From the NCBI GenBank assembly GCA_036557605.1, contig DATBHE010000074.1, positions 17,671 to 81,670 on the forward strand: a stretch of DNA of 64,000 nucleotides, given 5' to 3'. Every line of letters begins with the position of its first letter. Position 1 is the first letter of the stretch. This document shows, piece after piece, positions 6,969 to 47,939 of this stretch. The DNA comes from Pseudolabrys sp. GTDB lineage: Bacteria > Pseudomonadota > Alphaproteobacteria > Rhizobiales > Xanthobacteraceae. The position numbers were made by a program, and so were the translations under genes. The notes below the pieces were generated by a model, which was not told the origin of the DNA, did not search any database, and saw only the letters and a list, made by a program, of their open reading frames with translations.

Positions 6969-7148
6969 CCCAACTTCGCTCGTAGCCAATGCCCATTGTT
7001 CTTCGTTTCTTCTTCCCAAAATGTACTTAGTCGCGTTCAACCCAATATTGTCGTACCAGACAAAGAGCTTTTTCTTGCAACTACAGAACTGGGATAGTAG
7101 TTTTAAATATTGGGGCTAGTCCACGGGTCGTCAGACGGGGCGGTTGCA

Positions 7149-7568
7149 ATGACAGACAGTACAGCCAGTGGAAACTACATCGAACTGACAGCTGAAATCG
7201 TCTCGGCCTATGTCAGTAACAACACTGTCCCGGCAGCAGAGATTCCTGGTCTGATCAACCAAGTTCACGCCGCGCTGACGCGAGTGTCCGGAAAGCCCGC
7301 CGAAGGTTCTGCCGAACCCCTCAAGCCGGCTGTGTCCGTAAAAAAATCAATTACGCCTGAATACATCGTATGCCTTGAGGACGGAAAGAAATTCAAATCG
7401 CTCAAGCGGCACCTGCGCACTCAGTACAACATGACCCCAGAGCAGTATCGCGAGAAATGGGGCTTAAACGCCGAATATCCAATGGTCGCGCCGAACTATG
7501 CTGCCGCACGATCGCAACTCGCAAAACAGATGGGTCTCGGACAGCAGCGGCGAAGACGGGCGAAATAG
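7149..7568 (+). CDS. mucR: MucR/Ros family transcriptional regulator
   Basis: [29 protein letters not shown] and YPMVAPNYA motifs; start ATG 7149. Confidence 0.96.
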
Positions 7569-7710: not shown

Positions 7711-8079
7711 ATGGCTTTCCTTTGTTCAGAATTCAAACAGGCGGACCAGCGGCGCCGACCGCATGATCTCGCCGAGGCCCACCGCCGATTGATTGAAGAG
7801 ACTGTCGCAGCTGTTTTTGCTGTGCCAGTCGGAAAAATTCGCGCGCCCTCACGCGGGTCTGCTTCAGTCGCATTCGCGCGCCAGGTCGCAATGTATCTTG
7901 CCCATATCGTGCTGGGCCACAGTTATACCGCGATAGGTCACTCGTTCGGACGTGATCGGACGACCGTTGCTCACGCGTGTGCGTTGGTTGAGGACGTACG
8001 CGATAATCCACCGGCTGATTGTCTCTTAAGCGCACTAGAATGCGTCTTGGAGCCACTTGCTCGACAGGCCCGGGCATGA
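7711..8079 (+). CDS. gafY: DnaA C-terminal-like HTH protein; probable GafY (N-terminal half of a split GafA GTA activator)
   Basis: RQVAMYLAH...IGHSFGRDRTTVAHAC resembles the DnaA domain IV HTH; coupled by an ATGA overlap to the DUF6456 gene. Confidence 0.7.
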   Translation: MAFLCSEFKQADQRRRPHDLAEAHRRLIEETVAAVFAVPVGKIRAPSRGSASVAFARQVAMYLAHIVLGHSYTAIGHSFGRDRTTVAHACALVEDVRDNPPADCLLSALECVLEPLARQARA

Positions 8080-8702
8080 GGATCGCCGGCAAAAGTGGTT
8101 GCCCGCAGACGCCGGTGTCCGGCCAACCATCAATCGACGGGTTTCGAGCCCAGCACCTCGTTCTCGCGGAACGCGAAATTGCGGCGGAAAATGGCCCCGC
8201 CAAGGTTACTGTCGACGAAAATGAGAGTCCGCTGGCATGGCTTGCCCGACGGCGGGGACGCGATGGCCGGGCAATGATCGAGCCACACCAGTTGCAGGCC
8301 GGAGAGCGGCTACGAGCCGATTTCACGCGCGCTCTTCTTATGCCGCGTACAAGCTCGAATTGGTCAAATCCGCTGCCCGGCAATCGCCAAGCAAGCGGAC
8401 CGCGAACGGCTGTGTTGACGGAAACGATCGTCGCAGCCAAGCAACGCGTGCGCCACGCCCTTGATGCCGTCGGTCCGGAATTCGCGGGCCTGCTGCTCGA
8501 TGTCTGCTGTTTTCTAAAGGGCCTTGAAGTGGCCGAACGCGAACGTGCCTGGCCGGCACGCTCCGCAAAAGTCGTTTTGCAGTTGGCGCTCGACCGCTTG
8601 GCGCGCCACTACGGTTATGGCGCCCGTACCCGCGGTCCTGCGACTTCGAGTATACGGACTTGGCTCTCCGATGGCGCCCATTTTACCGTGACAAGCGACT
8701 AG
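8076..8702 (+). CDS. gafZ: DUF6456 domain protein; probable GafZ (C-terminal half of split GafA)
   Basis: ESPLAWLARRR, AGERLRADF, LLDVCCFLKGLE..ER...WPARSAKVVLQLALDRLARHYG; ATG 8076 overlaps the upstream TGA. Confidence 0.7.
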   Translation: MRIAGKSGCPQTPVSGQPSIDGFRAQHLVLAEREIAAENGPAKVTVDENESPLAWLARRRGRDGRAMIEPHQLQAGERLRADFTRALLMPRTSSNWSNPLPGNRQASGPRTAVLTETIVAAKQRVRHALDAVGPEFAGLLLDVCCFLKGLEVAERERAWPARSAKVVLQLALDRLARHYGYGARTRGPATSSIRTWLSDGAHFTVTSD

Positions 8703-9130
8703 GCGACGGCCGCCAAGGCGGCGGTGGCTTCGGTACGAATTCGCTGTACCATGGACCGCAGCCCGTTCGAGCGCTGAGGCGTGAGATTTTCTCGCAAGCC
8801 AATCCGATCGAAGATCTCCGTCGCATCAATGTCCAGGATCTCGCGCGCACTTTTGCCCGAATAGAGCGCAAGCAATATTGCAATCAGGCCGCGGACGATG
8901 TGAGCGTCGCTGTCACCTTCGAACGTGAGCACGGGTCCCGATGATCCGTTCGCCTTGACATGCGTGAGCAGCCAGACCTGGCTGGCGCAGCCTTGCACTT
9001 TGTTGGTTTCGGAATGCGCGCTTTCAGCCAATGGCGGGAGCGCTCGCCCCAGCTCGATCACGTAGCGGTAGCGGTCATCCCAGTCGTCGAGCACCGCGAA
9101 GTTGTCGACAATCTCGTCAATAGCGTTCAT
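8699..9130 (-). CDS. sufE: SufE family Fe-S assembly sulfur acceptor
   Basis: VQGCASQVW catalytic Cys, GDSDAHIVRGL, LTPQRSNGL. Confidence 0.95.
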   Translation of the reverse strand: MNAIDEIVDNFAVLDDWDDRYRYVIELGRALPPLAESAHSETNKVQGCASQVWLLTHVKANGSSGPVLTFEGDSDAHIVRGLIAILLALYSGKSAREILDIDATEIFDRIGLRENLTPQRSNGLRSMVQRIRTEATAALAAVA

Positions 9131-9217: not shown

Positions 9218-9625
9218 CTACGCTGCCGGTCCGTTGGCCCGTGCCTCACGGCGGGGTGGCAGCGGGACTGGTGCGTGCCAGCCCGGCGCCATGTCGGCCG
9301 GCGTCAATGTGCCCTGGCCGACAGTGGCTGAGGACTTGTTATCGCCCATTTCCGCCGATTTCTCTCGAAGCTTCATAATGAACTCATAGAGAGTACGTGC
9401 GCCGGCCTCGGCCTTGTGACCGAGAGCGACCGCTACCTTGCCTCCGGTGACGCAGGCATCGGGTTGACGCTCGCAAAATCCCCGCGCATCGGAAACGGCT
9501 GCGCTCGCAAGCGTCACAGCTTCCGACGCAGCAATTTGTGCTTCAGGATTTGTCGACTTCTTGCTACTTGGCAGCAGCACGCAGACGACGCACAGCCAAA
9601 ATGCCATTCGCAGAAGGAAGAACAT
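9218..9625 (-). CDS. DUF5330 domain protein
   Basis: MFFLLRMAFWL N-terminal TM, FCERQPDAC motif, GTLTPADM tail. Confidence 0.8.
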   Translation of the reverse strand: MFFLLRMAFWLCVVCVLLPSSKKSTNPEAQIAASEAVTLASAAVSDARGFCERQPDACVTGGKVAVALGHKAEAGARTLYEFIMKLREKSAEMGDNKSSATVGQGTLTPADMAPGWHAPVPLPPRREARANGPAA

Positions 9626-9982
9626 AAGCCTACCCCGGACGACGATCCCCGGCAGCAGATGCGCTGCCTTTGAGCTAAACCCTAGCAGACAGCACTAAAA
9701 CTGTTATTGGAAAGACGATGCGCTTTTTGCTCAATTTCGATAGAAATTTTAGTCAAAGTTGAATCATTCGTTGCCGCGAAAATTTGCCCGATGGTCGGGA
9801 ATCCGGTGTCTATCAGCCGCTTTTCGACATTCGATATGGTTACCGGATCGGTAAGGATCGGCGACAGCTGGCAGTCAGTTCGCACGGTGACAACTGAAAT
9901 TTCACCATGACCTGCAAATAGCTTCTCAGTCGTTTCCCCGACGGGTTCAGACGATGCATGTACGGGTCACCGAGGCCGACTT

Positions 9983-9997
9983 TTAGCCTTCGCTTAA
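9983..9997 (+). promoter_or_regulatory. CtrA-box-like site (TTAG-N7-TTAA)
   Basis: TTAG ccttcgc TTAA, one mismatch to TTAA-N7-TTAA, 67 bp upstream of the 10064 ORF. Confidence 0.55.
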
Positions 9998-10063
9998 GTC
10001 CCTTTGCCCTAAGGTCCGCCTGAAGACAGGGGCGCGTTTGTTCATCAAGACGCGACGGGACGG

Positions 10064-10207
10064 GTGCGTTTCCTCACGCCAATATGGAATTACGTCGATG
10101 GCTTGGTTCCCGCCGGGGTACCAAACATACGACAGCTCCGGGCTCGGACGGAACGCTGTCGCGATATTGCATATGTATCAAATGATCGGGTGAAAAAAAG
10201 TGCCTAG
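10064..10207 (+). pseudogene. 47-aa ORF; probable internally deleted remnant of the divJ-type PAS histidine kinase gene
   Basis: Hand translation MRFLTPIWNYVDGLVPAGVPNIRQLRARTERCRDIAYVSNDRVKKSA*; stop overlaps the GTG start of the next gene; sits where related genomes carry the kinase (recalled synteny). Confidence 0.55.
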
Positions 10208-10916
10208 ACGTTCGAGTCGGAGAAGTTCTGCCAATTCAAACGGCCTCGGCAGGATGGCTGGGGCGATCGCGCAACATCCGCGCGAATTCGTAGCGATAGT
10301 GATGTCAACCGTCGCTGTCTTCGCGATCGCCATCAACGCCTTGTTCCTGCAAAAAGGCCCGCATCCCGCGCCAATCTTTGCAACACGTCCATTGCTACAT
10401 CGAGAGGCAGCTCTGCCGCCACGTTTGTCGTCCATTCCGGGCAGCCTCGCAAGTGACATGGCCGCCCAAGGCCGGTTGCAGCTGGTTGCAAACATACAGC
10501 GCGAACTGGCGCGCAAAGGATTTTATGACGGCCCAACCGATGGCATTTGGGGATCAAAAACCGACGCCGCAGTACGAGATTTCATTCAGACGTCCGGATC
10601 CAAAGTGAATCCGGAAGCAAACGAGAATCTGCTTCGCGCAGTCACAACGTACACTGCAAGGCCCGCGCCTGCATCGACTGCGGTGTCTTCGGACCCCATT
10701 GCCAAGCTCATCGCGCCGTCCAAACGGATGGTGGCGGTACAACGCGCACTTGCCGACTTTGGCTATGGCCAGATCAAGGCAACTGGCGTCTACGATCCCG
10801 AAACCCGTAGCGCCATTGAGAAGTTCGAGCGCGATCATCATCTGCCCGTTACCGGTCAAATGTCTGATCGTCTTTTGCGCGAGCTTGCCGCAATGACCGG
10901 CCGTCCGCTCGAGTGA
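10200..10916 (+). CDS. Peptidoglycan-binding protein (N-terminal TM plus two PG_binding_1 domains, no catalytic domain)
   Basis: IQRELARKGFYDGPTDGIWGSKTDAAVRDF and VQRALADFGYG...TRSAIEKFER repeats. Confidence 0.88.
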   Translation: MPRRSSRRSSANSNGLGRMAGAIAQHPREFVAIVMSTVAVFAIAINALFLQKGPHPAPIFATRPLLHREAALPPRLSSIPGSLASDMAAQGRLQLVANIQRELARKGFYDGPTDGIWGSKTDAAVRDFIQTSGSKVNPEANENLLRAVTTYTARPAPASTAVSSDPIAKLIAPSKRMVAVQRALADFGYGQIKATGVYDPETRSAIEKFERDHHLPVTGQMSDRLLRELAAMTGRPLE

Positions 10917-10952
10917 ATGGCCTCACCACAGTAGCTCGTGCTACTGAAGCCA

Positions 10953-11303
10953 ATGCGGTTGAAAAGTGGAATCTGGGTGGCAGCCTATCTACGCCGCTGT
11001 AACGTTGAGGGGGTTTTTGCGGCGGTACGGCGGCGTGGCGCCGAAGAAGCGGGGGCCATTTTTGTGAAAGTTAACCGGCTCGACGGCACCGGGACTCTTT
11101 ATGGCCCGGCGCCTCAGACGGCATTTGATGAGGCGCAACCGGCCGACCGGATGTTTGTTGCTCTTGTAGGGCGGGATACGCCGGCACACGAAACAGATAT
11201 CGAAGCGCGGTTAATACGGGAAGTCCGCTTTGATCCGGACCTTTGGCTGATCGAGATCGAAGACCGTGCGGGCCGCAGTTTTATCGATAATGTCGTTCAA
11301 TAG
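10953..11303 (+). CDS. DUF1491 family protein
   Basis: MRLKSGIWVAAYLRR...RRGAEEAGAIFVK...FDPDLWLIEIEDR. Confidence 0.9.
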   Translation: MRLKSGIWVAAYLRRCNVEGVFAAVRRRGAEEAGAIFVKVNRLDGTGTLYGPAPQTAFDEAQPADRMFVALVGRDTPAHETDIEARLIREVRFDPDLWLIEIEDRAGRSFIDNVVQ

Positions 11304-11306
11304 CTT

Positions 11307-12164
11307 TTAGCGGGCGCTGGCTTTGGTTTTTGCAAGTCGTTCTTTCGACTTGCTGGCAGGATAGGCCGGCGTGCGCAGGTCAGATGATCGGACGCCGCTG
11401 CGCTCATCGTCCCAGTAGATGGCCTGGTGTCTCGCGTGCGGGCCAGCAGATGTCGACTGCCAGATTGCGACCATTCGCTCAGCAGCAGCAGGGTTAAGTT
11501 CATCAAACAGTCGAGAGAGCTCAAAAATGCGCTGAACCGATTGGCCGATAGTCGGATTTAGGAACAGAAGGATTCGCTGAAGCACTTCACCTTTCATTCC
11601 GAGCGCTTTTGCCGTGACAACGATAGGTTCTCCTGAATTGTCATATGTAATTCGTTCAGCGAGTGATCTGCCAATATTGAGTGCGTGCGCGAGTACGCGG
11701 CTGAATTCCGCCGGATTGCGTCGCAGCACAGCCCCTTCCAGACGCCTGACCAATTCCGCTCCCGATGGCATCGGTCGGCGCCTTGCCGGATAAGATACGA
11801 CGTCGAGATTTGTGAGGATCAGGCGACGGTCATCCGGGGCGGCCGAGAAAAACAATTCGACGAGATCTGCCCTCGTTTCATTTATCTCATCAGGCCGGCC
11901 GTCGAGCTTCTGAAGGAGCATTGCGGGAGCGTTTGAGTATTGCCGAAGCTTGTCGGCGACAAGCGCGTGCGTTGTTGAATCGATCGAATCAATGAGACCG
12001 AGCATCAGTTCGACGTACTGGGTTTCTTCTTCGGCCGTGTGCATTGGCCGATGCGTGTATAGGTCGGTAAGTACCCTCGCCAGGGTGGAACGTACGTCGA
12101 CGCCATCCCGGCAGGCCAAATCGACCAGGCTGTCGAGGGTTACGGACGCGGAACACTTCGCCAT
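11307..12164 (-). CDS. DUF2336 domain protein
   Basis: LDSLVDLACRDGVDVRSTLARVLTDLY...GEPIVVTAKALG...ILLFLNP pattern; start ATG 12164 preferred. Confidence 0.75.
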   Translation of the reverse strand: MAKCSASVTLDSLVDLACRDGVDVRSTLARVLTDLYTHRPMHTAEEETQYVELMLGLIDSIDSTTHALVADKLRQYSNAPAMLLQKLDGRPDEINETRADLVELFFSAAPDDRRLILTNLDVVSYPARRRPMPSGAELVRRLEGAVLRRNPAEFSRVLAHALNIGRSLAERITYDNSGEPIVVTAKALGMKGEVLQRILLFLNPTIGQSVQRIFELSRLFDELNPAAAERMVAIWQSTSAGPHARHQAIYWDDERSGVRSSDLRTPAYPASKSKERLAKTKASAR

Positions 12165-12209
12165 ATTTTTACGCCGGCACTGCAGATAGGCAACATTAGC
12201 CACCGCTCG

Positions 12210-12226
12210 TTAGCGGAGCGTTAACC
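12210..12226 (+). promoter_or_regulatory. CtrA-box-like site (TTAG-N7-TTAACC)
   Basis: TTAG cggagcg TTAA CC between the divergent DUF2336 gene and the 12305 ORF. Confidence 0.6.
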
Positions 12227-12520: not shown

Positions 12521-13279
12521 ATGAAATATTTCTTGCCACCCCCAGCGCGAGCGAAGGTGCGGTGGCAAGTAATTGCACTCGCGATATTTGCGTTTCTTGG
12601 GGGATGCGCAAATTACGACTTTGGCGAAGTCCACCCGGTGCTGGTGACGGATGGAATTCATGACTGGATTGGCCGCGATTCAGGCGGCCCCCATCCGGTT
12701 CCTCCATCACGCTTCGAATATACCGATGATGAGCGTTCTCTTCGGGACCTCGCGTATCCGCTTATCGAGCCGCCATTTGATCGACAGCAATGGTACTCGG
12801 TCGCGGGGGAATATGGCTTATATCGTACGGATTCAGCGGATCACGGGCGTTACTACGAACGGTTACGGTCTACCTGGCATCGCTCGCCGTCGTCGCGCTA
12901 CTCACAACTCATCGACGACATTCGCAACGACATCACCCGAATGTCGCAATTTTTTGAAACGGCCGGACGTGTGATCGATATAGACCAAAAACGTCAAAAG
13001 AGCCTGAGTTATGTAACCGCGCTTGGCAAAAAGGAGCGTCAAAACGCCCTCCGTCGCATCAGAGAAAATGCGCATGTCGTGGCGATCGTTCAGCAGAGCC
13101 TTTCCGATCGAGTCGCGTCATATCAGTTTGCGCTGGAGCGCCTTGTTATCGCTACGCCGTCGCCGCAAGCGGTGGAAGTCGAGCGATCAATCAATTTGCT
13201 GCAAAATCACATCGCGCGCTATTATCAAAATCTTCCGCCCCCCTGGACTCGCGACCGTAGCCTCGCTGCGGCAAACTAA
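12521..13279 (+). CDS. Hypothetical lipoprotein
   Basis: Signal peptide with lipobox LGG-C; helical C-terminal region. Confidence 0.75.
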   Translation: MKYFLPPPARAKVRWQVIALAIFAFLGGCANYDFGEVHPVLVTDGIHDWIGRDSGGPHPVPPSRFEYTDDERSLRDLAYPLIEPPFDRQQWYSVAGEYGLYRTDSADHGRYYERLRSTWHRSPSSRYSQLIDDIRNDITRMSQFFETAGRVIDIDQKRQKSLSYVTALGKKERQNALRRIRENAHVVAIVQQSLSDRVASYQFALERLVIATPSPQAVEVERSINLLQNHIARYYQNLPPPWTRDRSLAAAN

Positions 13280-45266: not shown

Positions 45267-45341
45267 AAACGATATTTAAATGCAGGAAAACGCCCGCGCC
45301 GCCCCTTGCGCCGACAGGGCGCCTTAAGGCACTCAGGGTCC

Positions 45342-47939
45342 ATGGCAGGTCACGATCCGTCAGCGCCGGCGCAAGTGGCAGAGCGTGCGGACCCGCACGA
45401 GCGCAAGGCGTTTGACAAAAGCCAGGAGGGCTCGAGCGGCGGTTCGATTGGTCTGTTGCTTCTGGTGGCGCTGGCCCTGATCGGCGCCGCCGGCGGTCTG
45501 ACGTGGGTCAGCCGTGACTACGTAGAAGCCTACGTCCTTGCGCTGCTCGCGACCCTCGGAACGATCGGTGTGCTCGCGCTGTTTGCGGCGGCGACAGGGA
45601 TCCTGCGATTTGCGGGCAAAGATCAGGGAAATCCCTTGCTGAAGGCCGTGGTCGACGGCGCATTCGACGGGATCCTGGTGACCGACCACAGCGGTCGCGT
45701 CCTGTACGCAAACGCGACCTACCTTGATCTGATCGGCGCAACAGACATGCGGGACGTTCGGCCGATCGAACGCGTCTTCATCGGCGACCCGGACGTGTCG
45801 GAGTCGATCTACAGACTTCTCAAGGCCGCGCGTGAAGGACGGCGGCTGCAGGAAGAGGTCAGGGTCACCGGAATAGCAGGCGAGGGCGCCCGGTGGCTGC
45901 GCATGCGTGTGCGGCCGCTCGGTGAGAGACGCCGCGATGCGCGCACGACAGTGTGGTCGATCGCCGATGTGACGCGGGACCGCGAGCGTCAGGAAAATGT
46001 GTTTCAGGAGCTGCAATATGCCATCGACTATCTCGACCACGCCCCGGCGGGATTTTTCTCGGTCGATGCGGCAGGCGACATCGTCTACCTGAATGCGACG
46101 CTCGCGTCATGGCTCGACCATGATCTCGCTCAGGTCGGCACCGGCTCGCTCAAACTGGCCGACATCGTCGCGGGAGAAGGCGCCGCGCTGCTCACCGCAT
46201 TCAGTGCGGCCCCAGGTGAAGTGAGGACCGAGGTGCTCGACTTTGACCTCAAGACCCGGGGCGGCAAGCCAGTGCCCGTGCGGCTGTTTCACAAAGTCGC
46301 CTTCGGTGCCGACGGCGCAGCTGGCGCGTCGCGCACGCTGGTGCTCAATCGGGCAAGAGGCGACGGCAGCGATCCGCAACGCGCGGCCGAAGTCCGCTTC
46401 ATGCGATTCTTTCAGAACACACCGATGGCCATTGCGACTGTTGACAAGACGGGCCGTATTGCGCGCAGCAATGCGCGATTCGCGAGTGCGTTCGAAGGGC
46501 TCCTCAAGAGGGACGACCGCTCTATCCTTTCGGTGGTCGTCGGGCGCGACCGACCCGTGCTGGAAGCCGCGATCCGCAAAGCTGCCGAGGGGCAGAGTGA
46601 TATCGCGCCGGTCGAGGCGGCCTTGACCGGAAGCGCCGAACGCTGGGCGAATTTCTTCGTCCTGGCCATCGAGGAGCAAGATCGCGACGGGGAAGCCGCC
46701 ATCGTCTACGCACTGGAAACGACGGCGCAACGCACGCTCGAGAATAGAATTCAGCAACAGCAGAAGATGGAATCGGTTGGACAGCTCGCGGGCGGCATTG
46801 CCCACGATTTCAACAATGTGCTGTCAGCCATCATGATGGCGACTGATTTTCTTCTCAACGCCCACAAGCCGACGGATCCTTCGTTCAAGGATATTATGCA
46901 GATCAAACAAAATGCCAATCGGGCCGCGGCGCTCGTACGCCAGCTACTGGCATTCTCACGCAAGCAGACATTGCGTCCGCAGGTGCTGGATCTCGGCGAA
47001 ACCTTGAGCGACCTGGGAATGCTGCTCAAGCGTCTGATTGGCGAAAAAGTTGCGCTCGAAATCGTACATGGGCGCGATCTGTGGCCGGTGAAAGCAGATA
47101 TTTCACAGTTCGAACAGGTGATTGTGAATCTCGCCGTCAACGCGCGCGACGCCATGCCCGATGGTGGCAGGCTCACAGTCCGCACCGCCAATGTCGGCGC
47201 CGACGAATGCGCCAAGTTCGATTACAAGGGCATGCCCAAAGCGGACTATGTGCTGGTTGAAGTCAGTGACACTGGTACTGGCATTCCGCCGGAGATCATC
47301 GACAAGATATTTGAGCCATTCTTCACCACCAAGGAAGTCGGGAAAGGAACCGGACTGGGACTCTCGACGGTTTATGGAATAGTCAAGCAGACGGGTGGAT
47401 TCATCTACGCGGAGTCGGAATCAGGCTGGACGTCGTTTCGCATTTTCCTTCCGCGCCATGTTCCGGGCGCGGAGGAAGTTCTCGCGCAGATTCCGGCAGC
47501 GGACTCTCCTGCAATCGCCGATGCCATGTCGGCTGCGCACTCAATGGCGCGGGCCGCGACTGCAGATCTCACGGGGCAGGGCACAATTTTGCTGGTCGAG
47601 GATGAGGAAGGGCTGCGCGCGCTCAATGCGCGCGGTTTGTCCTCCCGCGGGTATACAGTGTTGGAAGCGAGCAACGGCATGGAAGCCATCGAGACCTTCG
47701 ACAAACACGGTCACGTTGACCTTGTCGTGTCGGACGTCGTCATGCCCGAAATGGATGGACCGACATTGCTCAAGGAGCTTCGCCAACGTGACCGGAACGT
47801 GAAGATTATTTTCGTCTCCGGTTATGCCGAGGAGGCGTTCAGTAAAAACCTGCCCAGTCAGGAGCAGTACGCGTTCCTCGCCAAGCCTTTTACGCTCAAG
47901 CAGCTGGTTGCCGAAGTCAAAAAAACGCTGGTGCAGTGA
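45342..47939 (+). CDS. cckA: Cell-cycle hybrid histidine kinase CckA
   Basis: Two TM, PAS domains, H-box AGGIAHDFNN, HATPase GKGTGLGLS, REC domain (VEDE, SDVVMP, KPF); directly after flhB. Confidence 0.92.
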   Translation: MAGHDPSAPAQVAERADPHERKAFDKSQEGSSGGSIGLLLLVALALIGAAGGLTWVSRDYVEAYVLALLATLGTIGVLALFAAATGILRFAGKDQGNPLLKAVVDGAFDGILVTDHSGRVLYANATYLDLIGATDMRDVRPIERVFIGDPDVSESIYRLLKAAREGRRLQEEVRVTGIAGEGARWLRMRVRPLGERRRDARTTVWSIADVTRDRERQENVFQELQYAIDYLDHAPAGFFSVDAAGDIVYLNATLASWLDHDLAQVGTGSLKLADIVAGEGAALLTAFSAAPGEVRTEVLDFDLKTRGGKPVPVRLFHKVAFGADGAAGASRTLVLNRARGDGSDPQRAAEVRFMRFFQNTPMAIATVDKTGRIARSNARFASAFEGLLKRDDRSILSVVVGRDRPVLEAAIRKAAEGQSDIAPVEAALTGSAERWANFFVLAIEEQDRDGEAAIVYALETTAQRTLENRIQQQQKMESVGQLAGGIAHDFNNVLSAIMMATDFLLNAHKPTDPSFKDIMQIKQNANRAAALVRQLLAFSRKQTLRPQVLDLGETLSDLGMLLKRLIGEKVALEIVHGRDLWPVKADISQFEQVIVNLAVNARDAMPDGGRLTVRTANVGADECAKFDYKGMPKADYVLVEVSDTGTGIPPEIIDKIFEPFFTTKEVGKGTGLGLSTVYGIVKQTGGFIYAESESGWTSFRIFLPRHVPGAEEVLAQIPAADSPAIADAMSAAHSMARAATADLTGQGTILLVEDEEGLRALNARGLSSRGYTVLEASNGMEAIETFDKHGHVDLVVSDVVMPEMDGPTLLKELRQRDRNVKIIFVSGYAEEAFSKNLPSQEQYAFLAKPFTLKQLVAEVKKTLVQ

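Follow-up and report, generated by a model that had tools for sequence, protein, structure and literature searches.

A 47-codon reading frame in Pseudolabrys very probably marks the deletion of a DivJ-like kinase gene that was lost several times in the genus

An unannotated 47-codon open reading frame (ORF) at positions 10064 to 10207 (forward strand) of a Pseudolabrys contig is very probably a real deletion scar, the remains of a DivJ-like histidine kinase gene whose two ends were probably kept for the expression signals they carry for the downstream genes. The window, meaning the whole 64,000-nucleotide stretch of DNA analyzed here, belongs to contig C74 of genome G000, a metagenome-assembled genome (MAG) of 144 contigs that is 92% complete. 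The kinase body has been deleted from this genome and, with different junctions, from other members of the genus; the flanking signals are retained, and G000 keeps divK and cckA.

Results

A head-and-tail ORF overlaps the start of a PG-binding gene

The first-pass annotation of this DNA had noticed the ORF in the gap upstream of a PG-binding gene, and had read it as what is left of a DivJ-type kinase after an in-frame excision. Our ORF reading, translation and protein alignment confirm the coordinates and give an identical translation: the frame opens with a GTG at 10064, runs for 47 codons and closes with a TAG at 10205-10207. This stop lies within GTGCCTAG, and because the PG-binding gene begins with a GTG at 10200, the two frames overlap by 8 nt. 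The ORF consists of 17 head codons and about 20 tail codons of a kinase gene, without sensor, phospho-acceptor His or ATPase. Its 47-aa product matches no Pfam family, and so has neither a HisKA phospho-acceptor domain nor HATPase_c, and it contains no hydrophobic segment (maximum 19-residue Kyte-Doolittle mean 0.67).

Every neighbor named in the annotation is matched by Pfam. On the left are genes for MucR (7110-7568, forward), a DnaA_C-type HTH protein (7711-8079, forward), DUF6456 (8019-8702, forward), SufE (8699-9130, reverse) and DUF5330 (9218-9625, reverse), the last being the divergent left neighbor of the slot. On the right are an intact PG_binding_1 gene (10200-10916, forward), whose start the remnant stop overlaps, an intact DUF1491 gene (10938-11303, forward) that is probably in the same operon, and a DUF2336 gene (11307-12203, reverse). 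The distance from the DUF5330 start (9625, reverse strand) to 10200 is 574 bp. The HTH and DUF6456 ORFs as listed, the latter from a TTG at 8019, share 61 nt; Pfam matches DUF6456 only from residue 64 on, so the real start of that gene is probably further downstream.

The remnant matches both ends of a kinase encoded at the same position in relatives

A DNA search of 30 related genomes showed that in most genomes of the genus the flanks of this slot lie ~1.67 kb further apart, and that the extra DNA is a single gene encoding 601-671 aa. The encoded protein starts with (V)SFLTPVWNYVDALVHP, ends in NDRVKKSA and contains PAS, HisKA and HATPase_c domains (Pfam), and its gene overlaps the PG-binding gene by 8 nt, as the remnant does. 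Both the synteny and the kinase termini that the annotation had given for rhizobia are thus present in genomes of the same genus. Against a relative's 611-aa kinase, BLASTP aligned remnant residues 3-15 with residues 10-22 (77% identity, E 4e-6) and remnant residues 29-47 with residues 593-611 (68% identity, E 3e-6). Both ends of the remnant match the kinase termini in all eight relatives tested, bearing out the proposal that each half derives from the syntenic gene.

Local pairwise alignment of protein and DNA sequences locates the junction. The retained 5' end of the kinase gene, MRFLTPIWNYVDGLVPA, spans 10064..10115 on the forward strand and includes the ancestral GTG (protein alignment, and DNA alignment to G008, G083, G104 and G099). 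The retained 3' end, TERCRDIAYVSNDRVKKSA with its stop codon, spans 10148..10207 on the same strand, includes the next gene's ribosome-binding stretch and start, and is kept in the other scars described below. Start and tail have thus both survived, with the ancestral GTG and the TAG overlap in place. Between them lies a junction zone at 10116..10147 (forward), outside the ancestral frame, where DNA alignment shows that ~1.67 kb coding for the transmembrane (TM), PAS, HisKA and HATPase_c regions is missing. This zone encodes GVPNIRQLRAR and bears at most a shifted resemblance to the ancestor, with a net 5-nt gap. The annotation had placed an in-frame excision near 10109; the net outcome is indeed in frame, but the cut at 10109 is not clean, since the head continues to 10115 and the tail frame resumes only at ~10148. 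The off-frame stretch at 10116-10147 therefore indicates a complex deletion event, albeit one that is in frame overall.

The slot kinase of relatives is probably a DivJ ortholog

In eight of eight slot kinases, four to seven hydrophobic segments fall within residues 38-216 and are accompanied by an H-box, SHELRTPLNAIIG. The protein has the layout of DivJ, with membrane segments followed by HisKA with the conserved His and then HATPase_c, in about 600 aa. Among NCBIfam models it scores best, at 253-270 bits, with NF050805 (cell cycle sensor histidine kinase DivJ); the next-best families are generic kinases near 209 bits. For the slot kinase only, the NF050805 alignment runs from model positions ~41-64 to ~525-527 and includes the membrane part. 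These scores are far under the equivalog cut-off of 1000, which is tuned to Caulobacter and, among 14 control genomes, was passed only in Caulobacter. Over the kinase core, a ~770-aa paralog nearly equals the slot kinase on this model (243-258 bits), and in genome G081 a ~800-aa PleC-like paralog slightly outscores it. The DivJ-type identity proposed at first reading agrees with the top model match and with the reach of the alignment into the membrane part. Overall, we consider the lost slot kinase a probable DivJ ortholog.

Contigs from separate metagenomes bridge the junction

The full-length slot kinase aligns in G000 only to paralogs, only over the kinase core and at no more than 44% identity. 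Its sensor half has no match at all in this 92%-complete assembly, indicating that no second copy of the slot kinase is present there, although a relocated copy could lie in the unassembled part of the genome. The window stretch is also contained in public soil-metagenome runs, where separately built Logan contigs, possibly from the same samples as the MAG, bridge the junction: a 2541-nt contig from run X2 (depth 14.8, 0 differences), a 2188-nt contig from run X4 (depth 17.2, 1 difference) and a 198-nt contig from run X5 covering 9989-10186 (depth 5.1, 0 differences). No joints were reported for these contigs, and depth across the junction is level with that of the flanks. In runs X1 and X4, loose ends at 10064 and 10098 run at low depth into ALVHPAAQQD after a different upstream sequence; they represent a co-occurring related Pseudolabrys with an intact kinase head, not the G000 organism. 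Since contigs from separate runs bridge the junction, assembly collapse is very unlikely. The annotation had left open an assembly artifact and a locus-specific gene loss: these contigs speak against the former, and the latter is supported.

The slot kinase has been lost repeatedly in Pseudolabrys

The sensor half of the kinase was found in 128 of 150 Pseudolabrys species representatives. Besides G000, six genomes (G003, G134, G121, G077, G154 and G135) have an emptied slot between intact flanks, and the junctions differ from one emptied slot to another. The G000 scar, with its head of 17 aa and tail of ~20 aa, is in frame and keeps the GTG. That of G134 (head ~26 aa, tail ~20 aa) is likewise in frame with the GTG kept, as a 52-aa ORF with an overlapping stop. 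G003 (head ~5 aa, tail ~37 aa) is in frame and has lost the GTG; G121 (head ~80 aa, short tail) is out of frame; and G154 (head ~7 aa, tail ~50 aa) has lost the overlapping stop through a change of TAG to CAG. In G077, decayed head and tail sequences are spread over three frames with an internal stop, and in the closed 2.9-Mb genome G135 the slot is empty, with no recognizable remnant. The G121 and G077 scars finish 7-25 nt short of the next gene, and the sisters G121 and G154 each retain sequence that is missing from the other. Three of five scars with a readable remnant are in frame where one in three would be expected by chance, a count that is not distinguishable from chance yet leaves some room for read-through selection. 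Start, frame and overlapping stop are all kept in only two of the five readable scars, those of G000 and G134.

To place these losses we used nine flanking proteins (2231 columns) for a maximum-likelihood tree of 37 genomes. There, the sister group of G000 (100/99) consists of the kinase-bearing genomes G142, G008, G083, G104, G061 and G099, and the other scars fall at four further places: G003, G077 with G134, G121 with G154, and G135. Moreover, G122, the sister of G121 and G154, has an intact slot kinase gene encoding 608 aa. The tree requires five changes, four of them forced by starred branches, and AU tests of groups that were named after the tree had been seen reject a single clade of scar-bearing genomes (p < 1e-50). 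The kinase thus appears to have been lost about five independent times in Pseudolabrys. Neither this recurrence nor the fact that the in-frame state is not general had been foreseen in the annotation.

Some genomes were set aside. G063 was rejected as a kinase-less genome, as the C-terminal half of its kinase gene sits on another contig. Contig ends leave G016 and G114 (broken at the slot) and G060 and G148 (broken before it) unclassified, as is G059, which carries its kinase on a different contig from the flanking genes. The G059 kinase (contig C42) is only 50% identical in the sensor half and lies apart from the DUF2336 and PBP1A genes (L082), which in other genomes border the slot; there is no PG-binding or DUF1491 gene beside DUF2336, and this locus appears rearranged. 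Decay at the G077 locus (contig C151; L035 / L054) exceeds the kinase, in that DUF5330 is also broken and aligns only in the fragments 1-18, 74-113 and 109-124. The locus is present twice in two genomes: G013 has it on two contigs (C27 and C28), one copy with the kinase split into frames of 358 and 340 aa, and G095 has two full kinase copies on contig C1 (about 158519 and 2973540) with PBP1A pieces beside both. These double loci represent either duplication or mixed strains in MAGs.

Upstream blocks and the gene's 3' end persist after kinase loss

Across the 430-570 bp upstream of the kinase start, blocks are nearly unchanged in 13 of 13 species aligned, whether the kinase is present or not. 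The CtrA-like box that the annotation had reported at 9983..9997 (forward strand; TTAGCCTTCGCTTAA, TTAG-N7-TTAA) is present, one mismatch from TTAA-N7-TTAA. It is part of a conserved block, CTTAGCnTTCGCTTAAG, is kept with or without the kinase, and has unchanged half-sites and only single-base spacer changes in all 13 species. Matches to TTAR-N7-TTAA occur four times in the 64 kb against 0.5 expected. Further conserved elements on the forward strand are an inverted-repeat block, ATGGTTACC-N6-GGTAA, at 9836..9854, the block AAATTTCACCATG at 9897..9909, and a 5' leader at 10029..10063 that combines a hairpin-like stretch (GGGGCGCG..GACG) with a GGGAC Shine-Dalgarno-like site before the GTG; CCTAAGGTCCGC is another conserved upstream block in the same 13-species alignment. 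The block at 9836-9854, nearly invariant across the 13 species, resembles a degenerate TTAACCAT-type site.

Searches for other signals gave little. Rfam at permissive thresholds found no match in 9400-10400, and a sigma-70 scan of 9600-11400 found no promoter-like site. A "terminator-like" match at 10017-10034 was rejected, as it is the conserved leader hairpin and scores no better than shuffled sequences. A second TTAG-N7-TTAA box, TTAGCGGAGCGTTAA, lies at 12210-12224 in a divergent gap, upstream of DUF2336 (start at 12203, reverse) and before a 252-aa ORF at 12521.

At the other end, the last ~25 nt of the kinase gene, which include the PG-binding start, are present wherever a scar has a readable remnant, and the PG-binding and DUF1491 genes are full-length throughout the genomes inspected. 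These observations are most simply read as a single transcription unit, past or present, of the kinase, PG-binding and DUF1491 genes. The upstream control blocks and the kinase 3' end would then most likely serve the PG-binding and DUF1491 genes. With the frame preserved in just three of the five readable scars, and start, frame and overlapping stop together in just two, the peptide and its frame are probably not selected; the 47-aa peptide is most likely a scar rather than a product under selection. Selection for an in-frame peptide was accordingly set aside, the other scars being out of frame or without a start.

Kinase losses coincide with missing pleD

Other parts of the circuit are in place. 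The cckA gene lies in the window (45306-47939) and, as the annotation had suggested, looks intact, passing its family cut-off at 1225 bits. G000 has a divK gene with 92% identity to that of G009, and scar-bearing genomes have divK at 80-93%, except G003, in which divK was not found. Among the kinases that G000 also retains, one is PdhS-like (NF041593, 631 bits), another, of 760 aa, has a DivJ/PleC-type core, and a third is 527 aa long. A search of the genome for divJ, pleC and pdhS thus returned PdhS-like and PleC/DivJ-core kinases but no copy of the slot kinase.

The exception is pleD, which follows divK in G009, G081 and G119. Searches failed to find it in G000, anywhere in the G000 clade (apart from a fragment in G142), in G122 or in any scar-bearing genome, and nothing pleD-like follows divK at the divK loci of G000, G008, G121 and G135. 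In G000 itself, outside the window on contig C44 (84000-91000; L089), divK adjoins DUF3572 as in relatives, with pleD missing. In a wider search of 151 Pseudolabrys genomes, 33 yielded no pleD. Among the tree genomes, 16 have both pleD and the slot kinase, eight lack pleD and have the kinase, six lack both, and none has pleD without the kinase. Five pleD-bearing genomes (G133, G160, G159, G131 and G004) were left unscored; these have no kinase match and DUF1491 was also not found, the region being unassembled or lost whole.

By parsimony, pleD loss precedes kinase loss both in the G000 clade and in the clade of G077, G134, G122, G121 and G154. The association between the two losses is not significant in an independent-pairs test, in which four contrasts are too few for significance. 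We also compared divergence against the same four outgroup genomes: in pleD-less lineages (the G008 clade and G122) divergence of the kinase is 1.44-1.59 times that of the flanking proteins, and in pleD-bearing lineages of the same subclade 1.13-1.24 times. Constraint on the kinase is possibly relaxed where pleD is missing. The replicated pattern of erosion, pleD and then divJ, is suggestive but not statistically secured. The notion of a rewired cell-cycle circuit fares only partly well: missing pleD lends it weak support, and divK, cckA and PdhS/PleC-type kinases remain.

Discussion

We propose that the ancestral slot held a gene for a membrane-bound PAS histidine kinase of ~605 aa, the probable DivJ ortholog, transcribed together with the PG-binding and DUF1491 genes under a promoter region that contains the CtrA-like box. 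One or a few deletions would have taken out ~1.67 kb of the kinase body. What survived upstream would be what the downstream genes need, namely the promoter/operator blocks, the 5' leader and the first 17 codons; downstream, the last ~20 codons would have survived with the ribosome-binding stretch and the overlapping PG-binding start. Deletions may have been tolerated only when they spared the promoter and leader and the translation signals of the next gene. With its start, Shine-Dalgarno-like site and overlapping stop intact, the 47-aa frame may still be translated, probably without a function of its own.

Loss of the kinase may have been tolerated because the PdhS-like and PleC/DivJ-core kinases that remain could act on DivK in its place, and PleD, the other DivJ substrate, would already have been missing from the clade. 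Such a loss is plausible given that DivJ and PleC are dispensable in Hyphomonas (PMC7200025) and that Rhizobiales carry several DivK-directed kinases (PMC7003649). This locus alone is no surprise, as gene loss by deletion is an ordinary, known kind of event and DivJ is dispensable in several model alphaproteobacteria.

Could the short frame instead be selected as a leader ORF, in which the GTG start and the TAG in GTGCCTAG couple or re-initiate PG-binding translation, so that frame, start and stop are functional and the peptide sequence is not? The GTG, the GGGAC site and the 8-nt stop/start overlap are all intact in G000, the whole ORF is in frame despite the net 5-nt offset in the junction zone, and G134 independently keeps a 52-aa in-frame ORF with start and overlapping stop, with G003 also in frame. 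Against this, the scars of G121 and G077 are both out of frame and stop 7-25 nt short of the next gene, the start codon is gone from G003 and the overlapping stop from G154, so that start, frame and stop are not conserved together across independent scars. Three in-frame scars of five cannot be told from chance, and the last ~25 nt would be conserved anyway, as they hold the ribosome-binding stretch and start codon of the next gene. We therefore regard a selected leader ORF as improbable. An assembly or binning artifact, in which a full kinase exists and the locus was collapsed through repeats or mixed strains, we consider extremely improbable. The genome is a 144-contig MAG, and the same soils do hold a relative with an intact gene head (the ALVHPAAQQ loose ends at 10098), but in each of three runs a contig spans the junction, with 0-1 differences and the same depth as the flanks, the G000 flanks show no joints or alternative forms, the upstream sequence of the relative differs, and six assemblies from other projects have comparable scars.

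A further question is whether the lost gene, though real, was a functional DivJ. It could have been another PAS kinase near mucR and sufE, with a retained paralog as the true DivK kinase, and its loss would then say nothing about the circuit. The NF050805 score of 268 against a cut-off of 1000, the almost equal core score of the ~770-aa paralog, and the strong constraint on divK even without the slot kinase all point that way. Nevertheless, the slot kinase is alone in matching the DivJ model across the membrane region, its size and layout match DivJ, and the CtrA-like box upstream recalls S. meliloti, in which CtrA binds and activates divJ (PMC4433202). Moreover, in every genome with a verified loss the search for pleD came back empty, and pleD encodes a substrate of DivJ: Caulobacter DivJ phosphorylates both DivK and PleD (10.1101/2020.04.29.069633). 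A kinase other than DivJ thus seems unlikely, though less so than either of the preceding alternatives, and we retain the reading of the remnant as the scar of a DivJ-like kinase gene.

If so, these genomes may amount to an experiment that nature has replicated, removing one arm of the DivJ-PleC-DivK-PleD module, pleD and then divJ, while divK, cckA and the PdhS-type kinases stay. A tentative history, possible but short of one we would favor, is that pleD was lost first and made DivJ expendable. The selected role of DivJ here would have been mainly in the PleD/c-di-GMP branch, with DivK still constrained and served by PdhS/PleC-type kinases; the kinase would have evolved faster and then been deleted repeatedly, and what remained each time, the CtrA-box promoter and the gene ends, would be an expression cassette for PG-binding and DUF1491. 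The pattern yields a testable order of events and a testable claim on which substrate keeps DivJ selected. It also suggests that the real client of the conserved CtrA-like control region may be the uncharacterized PG-binding/DUF1491 pair. The label that suits the 47-aa ORF in an annotation is kinase pseudogene remnant rather than new small protein.

Among known systems, DivJ of Caulobacter vibrioides and Sinorhizobium meliloti (NF050805) is the closest counterpart of the intact kinase in relatives, which shares with it a length of about 600 aa, N-terminal membrane segments, the H-box and HATPase_c, and whose gene lies a few genes from mucR with a CtrA-like box upstream. The relatives' kinase differs in the PAS domain that separates its membrane part from HisKA, and in scoring far below the equivalog cut-off. 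In S. meliloti, redundancy is known between DivJ and CbrA. The PdhS/PleC/CbrA family of Rhizobiales offers a second parallel, as G000 keeps a PdhS-like kinase and two with a DivJ/PdhS-type core, and DivJ, PleC, PdhS1 and PdhS2 are redundant in A. tumefaciens (PMC7003649). The G000 paralogs, however, lie at other loci, none has the membrane sensor of the slot kinase, and their phosphorylation of DivK is only putative. Finally, the locus resembles known deletion scars that spare downstream expression signals: promoter, leader, first codons and last codons with the next ribosome-binding site are kept, the body is gone, and further decay is seen in relatives. Unlike in those cases, here one gene has been struck repeatedly within one genus, with a different junction each time.
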